The notes under the pieces were generated by a model. That model worked only from the letters and a program-made list of their open reading frames with translations, made no database searches and was not told where the DNA came from. This document shows positions 927 through 34,460 of a stretch of DNA of 37,331 nucleotides, piece after piece. How positions within the stretch are numbered: the stretch's first letter is position 1; the number at the start of each line of letters is the position of its first letter. This stretch comes from an uncultured Candidatus Saccharibacteria bacterium (lineage in GTDB: Bacteria > Patescibacteriota > Minisyncoccia > Minisyncoccales > GWA2-38-27): positions 1-37,331 of the forward strand of contig CAZSQP010000004.1 in the NCBI GenBank assembly GCA_964609075.1, written 5' to 3'. Both the position numbers and the translations under genes were made by a program.

Positions 927-931
927 ATTTC

Positions 932-968
932 TATCAAACAGGTTCTAATATCATCCAGTCCGTGTAGC
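932..968. repeat. Copy 1 of a 37-nt imperfect direct repeat (partner at 2304-2340)
   Basis: tatcaaacaggttctaatatcatccagtccgtgtagc. 31/37 identical to copy 2, and 5 of the 6 differences are transitions. It starts 6 nt after the hydrolase stop codon. Confidence 0.75.
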
Positions 969-1011
969 CAAGTTGTATGTTCAAACTGCTCTCGTAATAA
1001 GGACGGTTTTT

Positions 1012-2502: not shown

Positions 2503-5109
2503 ATGAACAAAAAACTCCTAATATATATATTAATAGCTATTGTTATAGTTATTACTTTAGCTGTAGGAACATTTTTAATATTAAGAAATGGTAAGTCTTC
2601 AGGTGAGGAAAGCGCCAAAACAGGAGAAATTGAAATAGTTGATTATTCTCCCCAAAAAGGGCCTGCTGGCTCATCTGTTTTTTTAAAGCTTAATTCGGTT
2701 CCGGATCAGTTTAAAGTAATGTATAACAATAAAGAAATTGCTGTTGAAGGCATATCAGAAGATACTGTGAGAATAGCGACTCCCTATGATATCGGATCAG
2801 GAGATATTCAAGTCAAATCAGGGAATAATGTAAGCAATTCAGTTCGCTTTACAGTTGAAGAGATGGAATTATTAGAATTAGCTTCTGAAACAGTAAATCC
2901 TTCTTCAGAGAAGCAAACAATAAGTTATGGAGACAAGATTGAAGTAACCCTCTCTCCTGGTTTGCTAAAAGAGTCAAAAAAACTTACCATTTCAGAGGTT
3001 AAAAATGCTCCCTCCAGTTTTATCAGCGAACAGACGGAAACTTATTCATTTGATGTCTCCTTAGAAGGAATGGAACAGCTGGACGGATATGTTGAAATAG
3101 GAGTGAAGTACGATCCTAATCTTTTGGATCCTGACAAAAATACTGAAGATCAATTTGTAGCTATGCGCTGGGATGAAGATGAAAATTACTGGGTTACTCT
3201 CCCCACCAGAGTCGATAACCAAAACCAAACTCTCTATATGCTCACAGATCACTTAACAGGCTTTGAATGGGGTATAATAGGGGCAGCTGTTTTGATCAGC
3301 AAGCCTGTTACTTTAGCTGGTGAGAAGCTTCTTAACAATTCTTATGTAACCTCTCAAGGAAACTTTAAAATTCTTTACAGTAAAGACGCAATAGAAGAAG
3401 ATGTCTCTTTAAATGATGATTGGTGGACAAAAAAGACTTATCCTGATGCAGGCCGGATAGATTATAAGTCTAATTATCCCAAAGTTATACAAGATGTAGG
3501 CAGTCTTTTTGAAACAGCCTTAGCCAGTTATATTAATTTGGGCTTTGAAAATCCAGTTAAGATAAAGGAGGAGTGGATAGGTACGGAAACGTATAAAAAA
3601 CCTATTATAGTTAAAATAGATTCCTGGTGGCTAGCTGTTACCGGCGAGCCTAATTACGAAAAGATATGGCAGAGAATTCATATACCAAGTATAAGATTAA
3701 AAGACAAAGACCTCATGAAAGCGACAATAGGGCATGAGCTGTTTCACAGGATGCAGGCAGAATATTATGGCAGAACAGGCTTCTTAGCTCCCAGCAGAGC
3801 CTGGTGGATTGAAGCTACGGCAGAATATGCAGGTCATAATGTTGCCTGGCCAGATGATATACCGGGACTAAATAATCAGGTAGGAATAGATTTCTTGAAT
3901 CATTCTATTTCTACTAAAGGATTAATTGAAGGAAATGGATGGTCCGAAAAAAGATATGAATATGCTTCAGCTGTCTTTATAAAGTATTTAGTTGAAAATA
4001 AAAGTTTGAATTTCAGAGAAATGGTTGAATACGGAAAAGAAGGAAATATTATGGAAAGATTGGATTCTTTTATCAGAAGCAAAGGCGGAGATCTCCTGGG
4101 TTATTACAGAGATTTTGCTGCCTGGGCTGCTTTTTCAAGCAATTCCTTTTTAGCAAAATATCCTTTGGCTGTATTTGGGGATGATAATGCATCTGATATA
4201 GTCAGTAAGAAAAACAGCATATCTTTATCAGACAACCAATCTTCTCTTGATATTGAAATAAATTCAACTGACGGGCAAGATACATTTGTAAGCGTCTTTA
4301 AACTAGCGGGAAGAAGTCCAGAAATTCCTTCGCCCTTAGTCAACTTGTCAGTCTTGTCTGGATCTGATCAAACCTCAATTGATGCTGAGCCCGGAGATGT
4401 TATATATCTTCTAGCTGTAAAAGGAAGTGGTAACGACAAACCAGTGAATGCCTTTGTTAGGAACAAAGGAGAAGAAAAGGAAGGTGAGGTTAGGCATACA
4501 TTTAATTTAAAAGATGATTATTCAGCTGAAATATGGGCTGTGAAGATTGAAGGAGCTTTAAAGCTTACAGGGAAATTTATAGGAGGCATAGAAGGGATGG
4601 GATACGGCCAAGAAGTTTACAGAGTAGGAAATACACAATACAGAATAGATATTGAAGGAGGAGTTACATTGTACATAGATTCAAATTGTGAGCTCTGGTA
4701 TCATCCTGAAATAGAAGAGGAAGGATGTGTTTATGATATCAGTGGTTCTTCTGAAGGCTGGTATAATCTTTATTCAAGAGACAAAGTAACCCTAAGCTCT
4801 GGTGAAAGCTATTGGGAAGAGTGGGAGCTCCATCCTTATGGAGACGCAAAGCCGGATTTAGCAGGAGACAGCTTGGCAGGAGTTATCAATAGTCTGGAGA
4901 ATTCATACTATCAGGCAAAATTAAATGATTTTTACTTCTTAATCAGGCCTTCAAAAAATGAGCCGAATATAATAAACAGTTTTCAAGGAGAGTATGATCC
5001 TAGTACAAATAAGTTTTATGCCGAATCTTTTGTTAACGCTATTCCCGGCAAAGGAGTATATGTGAAATGGGAAAGCCAGCCAGTTGAGACTAATTTTAAA
5101 AAAGAATAG
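2503..5109 (+). CDS. Membrane-anchored extracellular protein with an IPT/TIG-like domain and an HEXXH...E gluzincin-like metalloprotease motif
   Basis: 868-aa ORF. It has an N-terminal hydrophobic anchor (LLIYILIAIVIVITLAVGTFLIL) and an IPT-like segment (IVDYSPQKGPAGSSVFLKLNS...IQVKSGNNVSNSVRFTV). HELFH is encoded at 3733-3747 and is followed 22 residues later by WWIEATAEY, which resembles the M1-type WLNEGFA. Confidence 0.6.
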   Translation: MNKKLLIYILIAIVIVITLAVGTFLILRNGKSSGEESAKTGEIEIVDYSPQKGPAGSSVFLKLNSVPDQFKVMYNNKEIAVEGISEDTVRIATPYDIGSGDIQVKSGNNVSNSVRFTVEEMELLELASETVNPSSEKQTISYGDKIEVTLSPGLLKESKKLTISEVKNAPSSFISEQTETYSFDVSLEGMEQLDGYVEIGVKYDPNLLDPDKNTEDQFVAMRWDEDENYWVTLPTRVDNQNQTLYMLTDHLTGFEWGIIGAAVLISKPVTLAGEKLLNNSYVTSQGNFKILYSKDAIEEDVSLNDDWWTKKTYPDAGRIDYKSNYPKVIQDVGSLFETALASYINLGFENPVKIKEEWIGTETYKKPIIVKIDSWWLAVTGEPNYEKIWQRIHIPSIRLKDKDLMKATIGHELFHRMQAEYYGRTGFLAPSRAWWIEATAEYAGHNVAWPDDIPGLNNQVGIDFLNHSISTKGLIEGNGWSEKRYEYASAVFIKYLVENKSLNFREMVEYGKEGNIMERLDSFIRSKGGDLLGYYRDFAAWAAFSSNSFLAKYPLAVFGDDNASDIVSKKNSISLSDNQSSLDIEINSTDGQDTFVSVFKLAGRSPEIPSPLVNLSVLSGSDQTSIDAEPGDVIYLLAVKGSGNDKPVNAFVRNKGEEKEGEVRHTFNLKDDYSAEIWAVKIEGALKLTGKFIGGIEGMGYGQEVYRVGNTQYRIDIEGGVTLYIDSNCELWYHPEIEEEGCVYDISGSSEGWYNLYSRDKVTLSSGESYWEEWELHPYGDAKPDLAGDSLAGVINSLENSYYQAKLNDFYFLIRPSKNEPNIINSFQGEYDPSTNKFYAESFVNAIPGKGVYVKWESQPVETNFKKE

Positions 5110-5391
5110 TAAATTGCATCTGTTTTTATGGGAGGATTTTAGTTATTTCTTGCTTTATTGTCTTGGATAGAGCCACTAAATGGTTTTTTAGATTATTCTT
5201 TCTCTTTTTAAAAAAGCGGCTCTTGAGGAAATACTAGTACTGTTAGAAAAAAAGAACATGAGATTATTCATGTCATGGAATTTTAAATTATTTAAAAATT
5301 AAATTCATAATTAAGAAAAATCTATACTGTCTTAAAATATCCCATATTATTTTCAGTTTTTTTGATTATTATTTTTTTACATCGAAGAAAT

Positions 5392-5420
5392 TTGACAGGG
5401 TTTTTTAAAAAATATAAACT
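5392..5420 (+). promoter_or_regulatory. Sigma70-like promoter TTGACA-N17-TAAACT
   Basis: ttgaca at 5392-5397, exactly 17 nt of spacer, taaact at 5415-5420. It lies in an otherwise featureless AT-rich gap just upstream of the GC-rich island. Confidence 0.5.
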
Positions 5421-5426
5421 AGTATA

Positions 5427-5653
5427 AGTTGTTCTTTAGATGTCTGCGCGGACGTGCTGTACCAGAGAGGGGTGACACAAGGTCCTAGTTAAGGGAAAGA
5501 ACATGGATCCGCCCAAGGGTCGTCACAAGGGACGCAAGGAGAGTCACAGCGACCACGCGAACGAAGACGAAGCCCTCGAGCCCGACTAGCCAACACCGGC
5601 AACCAGCTCGAGAGAGTATGCGCCCCATTGATAAAAAATGGGGCGCTTTTTTT
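5427..5653 (+). ncRNA. Unclassified GC-rich structured-RNA candidate (alternatively a 5' leader/riboswitch-like element of tspO)
   Basis: Hand count gives 106/180 G+C for 5441-5620, against 10-25 % in flanking 60-nt blocks. It is bounded by a promoter and a perfect terminator hairpin. Internal helices: 5430-5437/5496-5503, 5450-5456/5476-5485, 5575-5581/5606-5612. The longest ORF is 28 aa. Confidence 0.5.
5620..5653 (+). terminator. Strong Rho-independent terminator
   Basis: gcgccccatt (5620-5629) pairs perfectly with aatggggcgc (5637-5646), 7-nt loop, then T7 (5647-5653). Confidence 0.8.
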
Positions 5654-5665
5654 ATTTTAATCTTA

Positions 5666-5674
5666 TGGTAAAAT
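5666..5674 (+). promoter_or_regulatory. Extended -10 promoter element TGgTAAAAT (leaderless-type)
   Basis: It ends 4 nt before the TTG at 5679 and 7 nt before the ATG at 5682. Confidence 0.4.
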
Positions 5675-5678
5675 AGTA

Positions 5679-6155
5679 TTGATGAAGTTAAATTATATTA
5701 CAATACCTTTGATCGTCATATTGGTTTCTTTAACGGGAAGCTATTTTACCTCTTTAGGAATGAGTTGGTATGATACTCTGACTCTTCCTTCATTTACTCC
5801 TCCAGGATATTTTATAGGAGCTGTTTGGACTGTTATCTTTATACTTACAGCAATATCTGCTCTTATTTTCTGGAATAAAAGGGAAGAGTTTAAAAGAAAG
5901 AAACTGATTATTGTTTTCTTTTTAATTAACGCCTTTTTGAATATCTTCTGGAGCTTTCTATTCTTTACTTCTCATTTAATAGGGCTGGCTTTAATTGAAG
6001 CTGTCCTTCTTGAGATATCCGTTATATCCTTAATGATTCTTCTTTATCCTAAGTCTAAAACAGCTTCAGCTCTTTTGATTCCTTACAGCGCCTGGACATT
6101 ATTCGCTATTTATTTAAATTATTTAATCTTTTCTTTAAATGTCTCAATACTATAA
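5679..6155 (+). CDS. tspO: TspO/MBR family tryptophan-rich sensory protein
   Basis: 158-aa ORF with five hydrophobic segments and WYDTLTLPSFTPPGYFIGAVWTVIF, typical of TspO. The real start is probably the ATG at 5682. Confidence 0.8.
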   Translation: MMKLNYITIPLIVILVSLTGSYFTSLGMSWYDTLTLPSFTPPGYFIGAVWTVIFILTAISALIFWNKREEFKRKKLIIVFFLINAFLNIFWSFLFFTSHLIGLALIEAVLLEISVISLMILLYPKSKTASALLIPYSAWTLFAIYLNYLIFSLNVSIL

Positions 6156-7999: not shown

Positions 8000-8022
8000 C
8001 TTCTTGATGAAGAGTCCCTTTT

Positions 8023-8031
8023 TGCTATAAT
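8023..8031 (+). promoter_or_regulatory. Extended -10 promoter element TGcTATAAT (leaderless-type)
   Basis: It ends 6 nt before the ATG at 8038. Confidence 0.4.
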
Positions 8032-11770: not shown

Positions 11771-11796
11771 TATCTTATTGATATAAACTTATATTA

Positions 11797-11805
11797 TGTT
11801 AAAAT
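11797..11805 (+). promoter_or_regulatory. Extended -10 promoter element TGtTAAAAT
   Basis: It ends 8 nt before the ATG at 11814. Confidence 0.4.
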
Positions 11806-21568: not shown

Positions 21569-21928
21569 ATGCCATTTGGTAACGGACAAGGACCCGCAGG
21601 ACAGGGCCCAAGAACAGGAAGAGGGTTAGGCTATTGTTCAGGCTACTCTTCTCCTGGTTATACAAAATCTGGTTTTAGCGGTTATTCTGGTTGGGGTAGA
21701 AGTCTCGGTTGGTTTGGAAGAGGAGGCGGAAGAGGATGGAGAAATTGGTACTATGCTACAGGATTACCGGGTTGGCAGAGAGCAGGAAGGGGCTATTATC
21801 CCCAAACTTCTCAGCAAGAGAGAGATGTTTTAGAGCAAGAGAAGAATATGATTTCTGAAGAGGTTAAGGCTTTGGAGCAGCAGATGAAAGATGTTGAAAA
21901 GAGAATAAAAGAGCTTAAGAAAAAATAG
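21569..21928 (+). CDS. DUF5320-family protein (Gly/Arg-rich N-terminus, coiled-coil C-terminus)
   Basis: 119-aa ORF. MPFGNGQGPAGQGPRTGRGLGYC matches the conserved DUF5320 opening. The C-terminal region (EQEKNMISEEVKALEQQMKDVEKRIKELKKK) is heptad-like. Confidence 0.7.
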   Translation: MPFGNGQGPAGQGPRTGRGLGYCSGYSSPGYTKSGFSGYSGWGRSLGWFGRGGGRGWRNWYYATGLPGWQRAGRGYYPQTSQQERDVLEQEKNMISEEVKALEQQMKDVEKRIKELKKK

Positions 21929-27669: not shown

Positions 27670-27999
27670 ATGTCTTACAAAGTAAATAAAGAAAAATGTT
27701 TAGGTGTTAAAAACTGTGGTGTTTGTATCCAGAGTTGTCCCGGTGCTACAAAAGAGGGAAGCGACGGAAAAGCTGAAGTTGCAGACCAGGAAAAACTAGA
27801 GCAATGCGGAGGAGAAAGTGTCTGTCCTATGGGGGCTATAGAAAAGGCGGATGGAGATTCTCAGCCTCAAGCAGAAAGACAAGCTCAGCCTCCTTTCCCT
27901 GGGCAAGGTAGAGGAATGGGAGCTGGCAGAGGAAGGGGTCTTGGTAGAGGACCCAGAGACGGCAGAGGAAGAGGAATGGGTGGGGGCGGAAGAAGATAA
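27670..27999 (+). CDS. Ferredoxin-like 4Fe-4S protein with a 35-aa Gly/Arg-rich C-terminal tail
   Basis: 109-aa ORF with CGVCIQSCP and CGGESVCP. The tail is PFPGQGRGMGAGRGRGLGRGPRDGRGRGMGGGGRR. Confidence 0.7.
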   Translation: MSYKVNKEKCLGVKNCGVCIQSCPGATKEGSDGKAEVADQEKLEQCGGESVCPMGAIEKADGDSQPQAERQAQPPFPGQGRGMGAGRGRGLGRGPRDGRGRGMGGGGRR

Positions 28000-28000
28000 A

Positions 28001-28312
28001 ATGATTGAAATTACCGGTCAAAACTTTGAAGAGGTAATAAATTCAAAAGAGCCTGTTTTGATTGACTTTTGGAGTCCAGGTTGTCCTCCTTGTGAAATGA
28101 TAGCTCCTATTATTGAAGAAATTGATAAAGAGTTTAAAGAAAAAGTGAAAGTAGGAAAAGTTAATGTCAGAGAGAATCCTGATTTAGCTCAGAAATATGA
28201 AATTATGGGAGTGCCTACTTTGATTATTTTTAAAGAAGCAGAGCTGAAAGAGAGGGCAACAGGACTTCGCTCTAAAGAGGTTATTGAGAATAAATTAAAA
28301 TCATTGTTATAA
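28001..28312 (+). CDS. trxA: Thioredoxin
   Basis: MIEITGQNFEEVI...DFWSPGCPPCEMIAP...GVPTLIIF. The track ORF opens at 27851, but that stretch is an alternate frame of the Gly/Arg tail. Confidence 0.85.
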   Translation: MIEITGQNFEEVINSKEPVLIDFWSPGCPPCEMIAPIIEEIDKEFKEKVKVGKVNVRENPDLAQKYEIMGVPTLIIFKEAELKERATGLRSKEVIENKLKSLL

Positions 28313-28316
28313 TTCT

Positions 28317-34418: not shown

Positions 34419-34460
34419 AAGGTAATTGTCATTTTTTTAGAAAGACTAAATAATAATTGT

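Follow-up and report, generated by a model that had tools for sequence, protein, structure and literature searches.

In the window studied here (37,331 nt; contig CAZSQP010000004.1, positions 1–37,331 of the forward strand, assembly GCA_964609075.1 of an uncultured Candidatus Saccharibacteria bacterium), a GC-rich island at 5441–5646 lies in the spacer between a gene for an 868-aa HExxH protein and tspO. The island matches no known housekeeping RNA and is in all likelihood neither a riboswitch nor a native protein gene, and no conserved function can be demonstrated for it. Our tentative preference, held with a little less than even confidence, is for lineage-specific DNA of recent acquisition, perhaps the tail end of a GC-rich gene, from which an orphan RNA is probably transcribed and whose terminator would insulate the tspO promoter. 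This reading is favored by the abrupt compositional block, which is unique in the window's non-coding DNA, and by the absence of the island at the syntenic place in the nearest relatives.

The window is a Patescibacteria (Candidate Phyla Radiation, CPR) fragment with a mean G + C content of 34.7% (0.347) and all genes on the + strand, and homologues of its TspO bear names such as "Patescibacteria group bacterium". The gap of 572 nt between the 868-aa protein gene (2503–5109) and tspO (5682–6155) is by far the longest intergenic region of the window, the runner-up measuring 219 nt. The G + C content of its first 310 nt is 18–31% and rises abruptly to about 59% from 5441. An initial annotation of the window had described an orphan GC-rich island framed by a promoter and a terminator upstream of tspO, an observation that we confirm, and its counts were exact (G + C of 106/180 at 5441–5620, 6/60 at 5281–5340, and 15/60 at 5341–5400). 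The island is the sole non-coding stretch of the window above 0.55 G + C (scanned in 120-nt windows); the other GC peak, at 27820–27999, codes for the RGG-rich tail of a small ferredoxin-like protein. The island is purine-rich and T-poor, its 180 nt at 5441–5620 comprising 54 A, 56 G, 49 C and 21 T.

The island was sought in relatives chosen by TspO identity (locus L002 of GCA_964648705.1, 86%; L003/L004 of GCA_964509645.1, 83%; a further one, 63%) and by identity of the 868-aa protein (L006, 81%; L007, 67%; L008, 55%). It is absent upstream of tspO in L002, L003/L004 and L005, and the T-run and the tspO promoter alone can be aligned between the window and L002 or L003/L004. In L003, mgtE ends 133 nt before tspO, and L002 has a different gene together with a repeat element ahead of tspO. 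Because no two relatives share the same arrangement of genes on this side of tspO, the spacer appears to be a synteny breakpoint prone to rearrangement. The homologues of the 868-aa protein (81%, 67% and 55%) are followed by unrelated sequence with no homologous island. The same sequence, with both flanks, is present in an independent Logan assembly of run SRR15425350, and the island is therefore not an assembly quirk.

Broader searches were equally negative. In 80 further tspO loci from GTDB species, nhmmer found nothing at E ≤ 10, and a Rfam search of 13 of these 80 loci returned tRNAs only. A covariance model of the 5' domain proposed in the initial annotation (R1) had itself as sole match in 635 kb of loci. 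Exact words from three parts of the island gave 0 matches in GTDB species genomes (22-mer) and 0 in JGI metagenomes (22-mer and 20-mer), while four 18–20-mers gave two chance matches only in viral contigs, in contigs of 60–69% G + C. Nothing meaningful was obtained by blastn against phages, plasmids and E. coli genomes. No homologue thus emerged by any route, and nothing in the sequences compared speaks positively for a diverged family. The initial annotation had named a lack of conservation or covariation in relatives as an outcome that would count against its RNA; this is what we found, with no homologues to align. Homology to a decayed gene or to foreign DNA could not be shown; in a search for a decayed gene, phmmer of a 37-aa frame gave 0 matches, and when the entire spacer was compared with all loci by tblastn in six frames, only noise resulted.

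Both signals proposed to frame the island were recovered by scans, namely a promoter-like TTGACA-N17-TAAACT site at 5392–5420 matching 10/12 positions of the sigma-70 consensus, and a perfect 10-bp hairpin followed by T7 at 5620–5653. Matches of at least 10/12 number 20 on the + strand of the window, with 11/20 falling within the small intergenic fraction, and several finish 4–9 nt ahead of an ATG. Because such matches concentrate in intergenic DNA ahead of starts, the one at 5392–5420 is probably a real promoter. The TTGACA/TAAACT hexamer pair also occurs in L008, 3' of the gene for the homologous 868-aa protein. With a native-type promoter at one side and a strong terminator at the other, a stand-alone RNA of about 225 nt (about 5427–5653) is most likely and can reasonably be inferred. 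The T-run of the terminator aligns with the T-run preceding the tspO promoter in relatives (alignment to L003). No terminator was found on the minus strand of the island region. A minus-strand RNA was considered and rejected, as folding was no better without the palindromic terminator and no terminator stands in that orientation. An antisense promoter-like site, ATGACG-16-TATAAT, is located at 5697–5719 (−) in the first tspO codons and faces the island.

Codon-level properties of the island are foreign to the host. The geometric-mean relative synonymous codon usage (RSCU) of a 28-codon open reading frame (ORF) within it is 0.58, whereas none of 381 host windows of 28 codons falls below 0.83. 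In the same frame, the G + C content of the third, first and second codon positions (GC3, GC1 and GC2) follows the order GC3 0.72 > GC1 0.60 > GC2 0.44, and the 3-periodicity gave chi2 p = 0.0012 (5476–5589) and 0.007 (ORF) for a span chosen post hoc. This coding-like phase pattern is suggestive only.

The preferred reading of recently acquired DNA would run as follows. A GC-rich block of about 206 bp would have entered or arisen in the spacer after the split from the nearest sequenced relatives, coming to lie behind the native-type sigma-70 promoter at 5392–5420 and running into the strong terminator at 5620–5653. An orphan RNA of about 225 nt would then be transcribed, presumably largely unstructured save for two 3' hairpins, and the terminator may protect the leaderless tspO promoter, whose start lies about 13 nt further on, against transcripts reading through from upstream. 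Because of the coding-like phase pattern and the host-foreign codon usage, the island core may derive from GC-rich coding sequence, perhaps a 3' gene end that brought its terminator along, and not from selection for an RNA fold.

Several points weigh against this scenario. No donor or homologue was found, and "acquired" is deduced only from composition and absence. The available relatives are fairly distant (81–86% amino-acid identity) and may have lost the island, and the exact-word scans detect only relatives above about 90–95% identity. A neutral block of 59% G + C would decay in a genome of 35% G + C, so that its persistence implies either recency or selection, that is, function. Transcription of the island is itself predicted. 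Finally, the frame and span of the periodicity were picked after looking, and the pattern could instead reflect CAAGG repeats that lie in phase. The features under discussion are collected in Table 1.

Table 1 Features of the spacer between the 868-aa protein gene and tspO, with window coordinates.
Feature	Position	Strand	Remarks
AT-rich spacer after the 868-aa HExxH gene	5110–5391		About 18–31% G + C; within the 572-nt intergenic region
Sigma-70-type promoter match, TTGACA-N17-TAAACT	5392–5420	+	10/12; predicted start about 5427
Putative transcript body	5427–5619	+	GC-rich block from 5441, about 59% G + C; no Rfam match
5' "domain" of the initial annotation	5430–5503	+	8-bp helix 5430–5437/5496–5503 around GGACGUG/CAC..GUCC; z −0.19
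Imperfect direct repeats (AGGGGTGACACAAGG / AGGGTCGTCACAAGG; CAAGGGTCGTCACA / CAAGGAGAGTCACA) with four CAAGG motifs	5468–5548	+	Repeats of 14–15 nt
28-codon ORF (MDPPKGRHKGRKESHSDHANEDEALEPD)	5503–5589	+	In frame with ATG 5440 across one TGA
Hairpin CUCGAGC/GCUCGAG with small internal stem	5575–5612	+	First of two 3' stem-loops; 5570–5655 z −5.89
Intrinsic terminator	5620–5653	+	Stem 5620–5629/5637–5646 (10 bp, 7 G-C), 7-nt loop, T7 5647–5653
Extended −10 TGGTAAAAT of the tspO promoter	5666–5674	+	ATG 5682 sits 7 nt after; mRNA predicted leaderless
tspO (TspO/MBR family), downstream neighbor outside the unit	5682–6155	+	Pfam PF03073 (TspO_MBR), E 3.5e-36

The spacer at 5110–5391 has no ORF of at least 30 aa and, T-rich runs excepted, no likeness to relatives.

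The folding of the island was assessed by z-scores against dinucleotide shuffles. The helices drawn by hand in the initial annotation are all present in the sequence or in minimum free energy (MFE) folds: 5430–5437/5496–5503 is a perfect 8-bp inverted repeat, and the GGAC/GUCC and CUCGAGC/GCUCGAG pairings occur in MFE folds. The accompanying description of the island as RNA-like and structured did not hold, as the body (5427–5619) folds like its shuffles (z +0.67 on the + strand, −0.33 on the − strand). Sub-domains of the + strand behaved alike (5427–5506, z −0.19; 5504–5619, z −0.66; 5440–5580, z +1.26). By contrast, the segment 5570–5655 of the + strand, containing the CUCGAGC hairpin and the terminator, had z = −5.89, with 0/200 shuffles folding as well. 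Only the 3' end is structurally exceptional, and the rest of the predicted RNA would be largely unstructured. The z-score of −2.65 for the minus strand of the whole region is owed to the palindromic terminator.

The main rival to acquired DNA is a young trans-acting small RNA (sRNA), whose unstructured, purine-rich 5' and central region would base-pair with targets or sponge a protein via (C)AAGG/GUCACA while the 3' stem-loops stabilize it. We regard it as possible and on balance doubtful. From the signals in the sequence alone, the candidate has what defines such an RNA, its own promoter and a Rho-independent terminator bounding a short non-coding transcript, and both are credible and in the right geometry. 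An open body with a highly structured 3' end (here z −5.9) is the usual layout of bacterial sRNAs, and the retention of a high G + C content in an AT-biased genome may point to selection. The 868-aa gene, too, is preceded by a comparable succession of promoter, short RNA, terminator and promoter. CAAGG occurs four times together with imperfect 14–15-nt direct repeats; the copies, at 5478, 5514, 5526 and 5535, fall within these repeats and share one codon phase (xxC AAG Gxx), and they can be read either as a repetitive basic peptide from a GC-rich donor gene or as an RNA-level repeat. CAAGG taken alone is enriched (P = 0.0004), but this enrichment is not robust over all 5-mers, since some 5-mer would be present in 4 copies by chance with a probability of 0.16. 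No CAAGG cluster occurs elsewhere in 654 kb of related loci, and no relative or collection conserves the candidate sRNA. A duplex-energy scan of 50 gene starts in the window performed no better than shuffled controls and revealed no outstanding target complementarity, and neither CsrA nor Hfq was identified in the window. In its specific form, the idea is of a GC-rich regulatory RNA of about 225 nt, functional and confined to this lineage, in which the in-phase CAAGG/GUCACA repeats would serve to titrate an RNA-binding protein or to bind targets by pairing and selection would keep the G + C content high. We consider this form unlikely; a dual-function RNA that also encodes a charged 28-aa peptide is a possibility.

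The second of two readings in the initial annotation was a small ORF, considered here first as a native gene. The 28-aa ORF (5503–5589) exists, as do the in-frame ATG 5440 and the intervening TGA 5473; its codon usage, far outside the host's, and the lack of a protein homologue (none of 1.84 billion representatives matched the 37-aa frame in phmmer) contradict this reading. A small protein gene of recent horizontal origin, either the 28-aa ORF or a product of about 50 aa that starts at ATG 5440 and reads through the TGA, is in our judgment very unlikely. It would account for the ATG-initiated open frame with a UAAGGG box 6 nt upstream and for 3-periodicity and GC3 > GC1 > GC2 in exactly this frame. 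The box carries no weight, however, as host genes lack Shine-Dalgarno sequences and are mostly leaderless; the codon usage lies outside every host window; and an open frame of 38–50 codons is expected by chance in T-poor DNA (a calculated 1.6 or so stops per 50 codons). TGA ends 12/47 genes, making it an ordinary stop, and an alternative code with UGA as sense was rejected on the same count.

GC-rich islands of AT-rich genomes are often structured RNAs, the premise of discovery in GC-rich intergenic regions (GC-IGR), and 6S RNAs are poorly conserved in sequence. A divergent structured housekeeping or catalytic RNA, such as 6S, beyond the reach of Rfam models might therefore be envisaged. The initial annotation had recognized no known RNA family and proposed a Rfam search; Rfam 15, with its families of tmRNA, RNase P, SRP and 6S RNAs, riboswitches, ribozymes and sRNAs, gave 0 matches at gathering score across the whole window, hence none for the island. 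Even at E ≤ 10 only noise was seen, on the terminator and flanks (best E 0.54), with nothing over the body, and ARAGORN found no tmRNA and no tRNA. The body folds no better than its shuffles, and the 5' and 3' ends are not complementary, so that no 6S-like rod forms (MFE). A housekeeping RNA would be expected in relatives, yet neither 635 kb of related loci nor the word scans yielded anything comparable. We hold this alternative to be highly improbable.

No more credit, in our estimate, is due to a mobile element, a template repeat of a diversity-generating retroelement (DGR), or an assembly or contamination artefact, an explanation about as improbable as the preceding one. The flanking sequences are alike (TAAACTAGTAT at 5415–5425 and TAAAATAGTAT at 5669–5679), though these similar 11-mers, starting at 5415 and 5669, are the two −10 regions. 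The island is also A-rich with AAC triplets, resembling a DGR template, and contains BamHI and XhoI sites. Against this, terminal inverted repeats beyond AT-rich low complexity are lacking, the window holds no second copy, and records of E. coli, plasmids and phages gave no match; the independent Logan assembly contradicts an artefact. With mismatches allowed at A positions, no variable-repeat partner was found, there being no match of at least 85% at non-A positions anywhere in the window, and no reverse transcriptase occurs among the 40 ORFs scanned, all within the first 28829 nt. A DGR template repeat was thus discarded for want of a partner in the window, and a miniature inverted-repeat transposable element (MITE) or insertion sequence (IS) element was discarded because inverted matches were confined to AT-rich low-complexity sequence and the single copy in the window has no counterpart in 654 kb of related loci.

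As its first reading, the initial annotation had offered a terminator-type leader or riboswitch for tspO, in which GGGGUG (5469–5474) would pair with CGCCCC (5621–5626) as an antiterminator. The island does immediately precede tspO, share its strand and close with a terminator, and the 6-nt complementarity is present; it is short, has no covariation support and lies outside both the MFE and centroid folds. The TGgTAAAAT element noted after the terminator was recovered as TGGTAAAAT at 5666–5674 and is conserved in relatives, where the tspO −10 region reads GGTAAAAT(A/G)G(C/T)ATT(A/G)ATG in L002 and L003, both of which lack the island. tspO, apparently leaderless, could thus be transcribed independently from its own extended −10 promoter behind the terminator, and a free-standing unit, as the initial annotation had also suggested, is probably the better framing. 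In every genome compared, a terminator and T-run stand directly before the leaderless tspO promoter. The island is missing before tspO in the nearest relatives and in the 80 further loci of GTDB species, the putative aptamer region has no folding signal, and neither Rfam 15 nor the searched literature holds a tspO-associated riboswitch. Judged by these comparisons, the island appears to have neither a conserved aptamer nor co-transcription without an intervening promoter. The lack of conservation appears largely to refute the leader or riboswitch reading, to which we assign next to no probability.

Gene starts of the window are without Shine-Dalgarno sequences, and a −10-like box typically lies just upstream. 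Because of these two features, most genes of this Patescibacterium appear to be leaderless, with canonical sigma-70 promoters in use. Canonical sigma-70-type promoters are situated 4–9 nt before starts, for example at 8004–8031, 11778–11805, 28284–28313 and 34426–34454. Ahead of the 868-aa gene, there is a perfect TTGACA-18-TATAAT promoter (2368–2397), then, at a distance of about 22 nt, a hairpin terminator (2420–2439 + T8), and after it a second, TG-extended promoter (2448–2476) located 27 nt before the ATG. This layout at 2368–2476 of promoter, short RNA, terminator, promoter and gene matches that at tspO, and a leader peptide of 14 codons, overlapping the terminator, could be encoded in the roughly 45-nt transcript.

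Other GC-rich stretches and one repeated element were observed during the comparison. L006 (6190–6260; GCA_964648705.1) carries about 80 nt of another purine- and GC-rich sequence, closed by a T-run, directly after the gene for the 81%-identical 868-aa homologue, and its contig ends 156 nt past this gene. This stretch was rejected as a relative of the island, the similarity not being significant. L005 (2135–2432; GCA_964482065.1, CAYZWC010000034.1), from another Patescibacterium, holds an unannotated intergenic island of about 300 nt with a G + C content of 0.52–0.55, TTGTCA-17-TATAAA upstream, a GC-rich terminator and no Rfam match, which is unrelated to the island of the window. A conserved multi-copy intergenic element with the core AAACAGGTTCTAAC followed by ATCRTCCAGTCCRCGGAGCTGC always comes close behind a T-run and precedes genes of various kinds (HATPase-like, the 868-aa protein, NYN, mgtE and, in L002, tspO). 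It was located in the window (928–985, 2300–2354), L002 (115–171), L003 (135–192, 2610–2660), L004 (337–387), L006 (3348–3403), L007 (3693–3740) and L073 (611–570, −). Its nhmmer profile gave E-values of 1e-5 to 3e-15, with no Rfam match and no consensus structure by RNAalifold, and it has the look of a motif at the DNA level, for example an operator or a site associated with promoters, and not of an RNA fold. The island was rejected as a relative of this element, which takes the same slot in L002, as the profile had no match to the island and pairwise resemblance was within noise.

Within genes of the window, Arg/Gly-rich (RGG-like) tails cause G + C peaks at 27670–27999 and 21569–21928, in the small ferredoxin-like protein (…GQGRGMGAGRGRGLGRGPRDGRGRGMGGGGRR) and in a DUF5320 protein, respectively. 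The ORF at 27851–28312 is an over-extended thioredoxin whose real start is at about 28001.

Among known kinds of elements, the island, which belongs to no Rfam family, comes closest to orphan sRNA units and to gene remnants acquired horizontally. It shares with orphan bacterial sRNA genes its free-standing position between two protein genes, a length of about 225 nt, a promoter of the sigma-70 type and an unstructured body followed by two 3' hairpins, the second of them a Rho-independent terminator; it differs in its unusually high G + C content, its length for a base-pairing sRNA and one coding-like frame, and in being known only at the level of sequence. Like acquired gene remnants (a 3' fragment plus terminator), it is an abrupt compositional outlier with foreign codon usage and GC3 > GC1 > GC2, is absent from relatives and is located at a synteny breakpoint, but no donor or protein homologue was found and we infer its origin. 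Terminator-type riboswitches and leaders are likewise upstream of a gene on the same strand and end in an intrinsic terminator; the island, in contrast, has a separate conserved promoter between its terminator and tspO, lacks a conserved aptamer or folding signal and is absent from the other tspO loci examined. Finally, closely spaced A(N)GG repeats (CAAGG 4 times, AAGG 5 times) recall CsrB/RsmZ-type sponge RNAs, whereas only one true AAGGA is present, hairpin loops do not display the motifs, their enrichment is not robust and the window revealed no CsrA gene.

The analysis yields useful facts about this genome, namely sigma-70 promoters 4–9 nt before starts, terminators right before such promoters and a conserved multi-copy intergenic motif. 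At present the island is a single-genome orphan without structure or conservation, and its value is chiefly as a caution: in an AT-rich genome, high G + C content combined with a promoter and a terminator does not suffice to establish a structured RNA or riboswitch. To our knowledge, post-transcriptional regulation is almost unexplored in the CPR, and the island, if it is a real regulatory RNA, would be one of very few sRNA candidates in this radiation.

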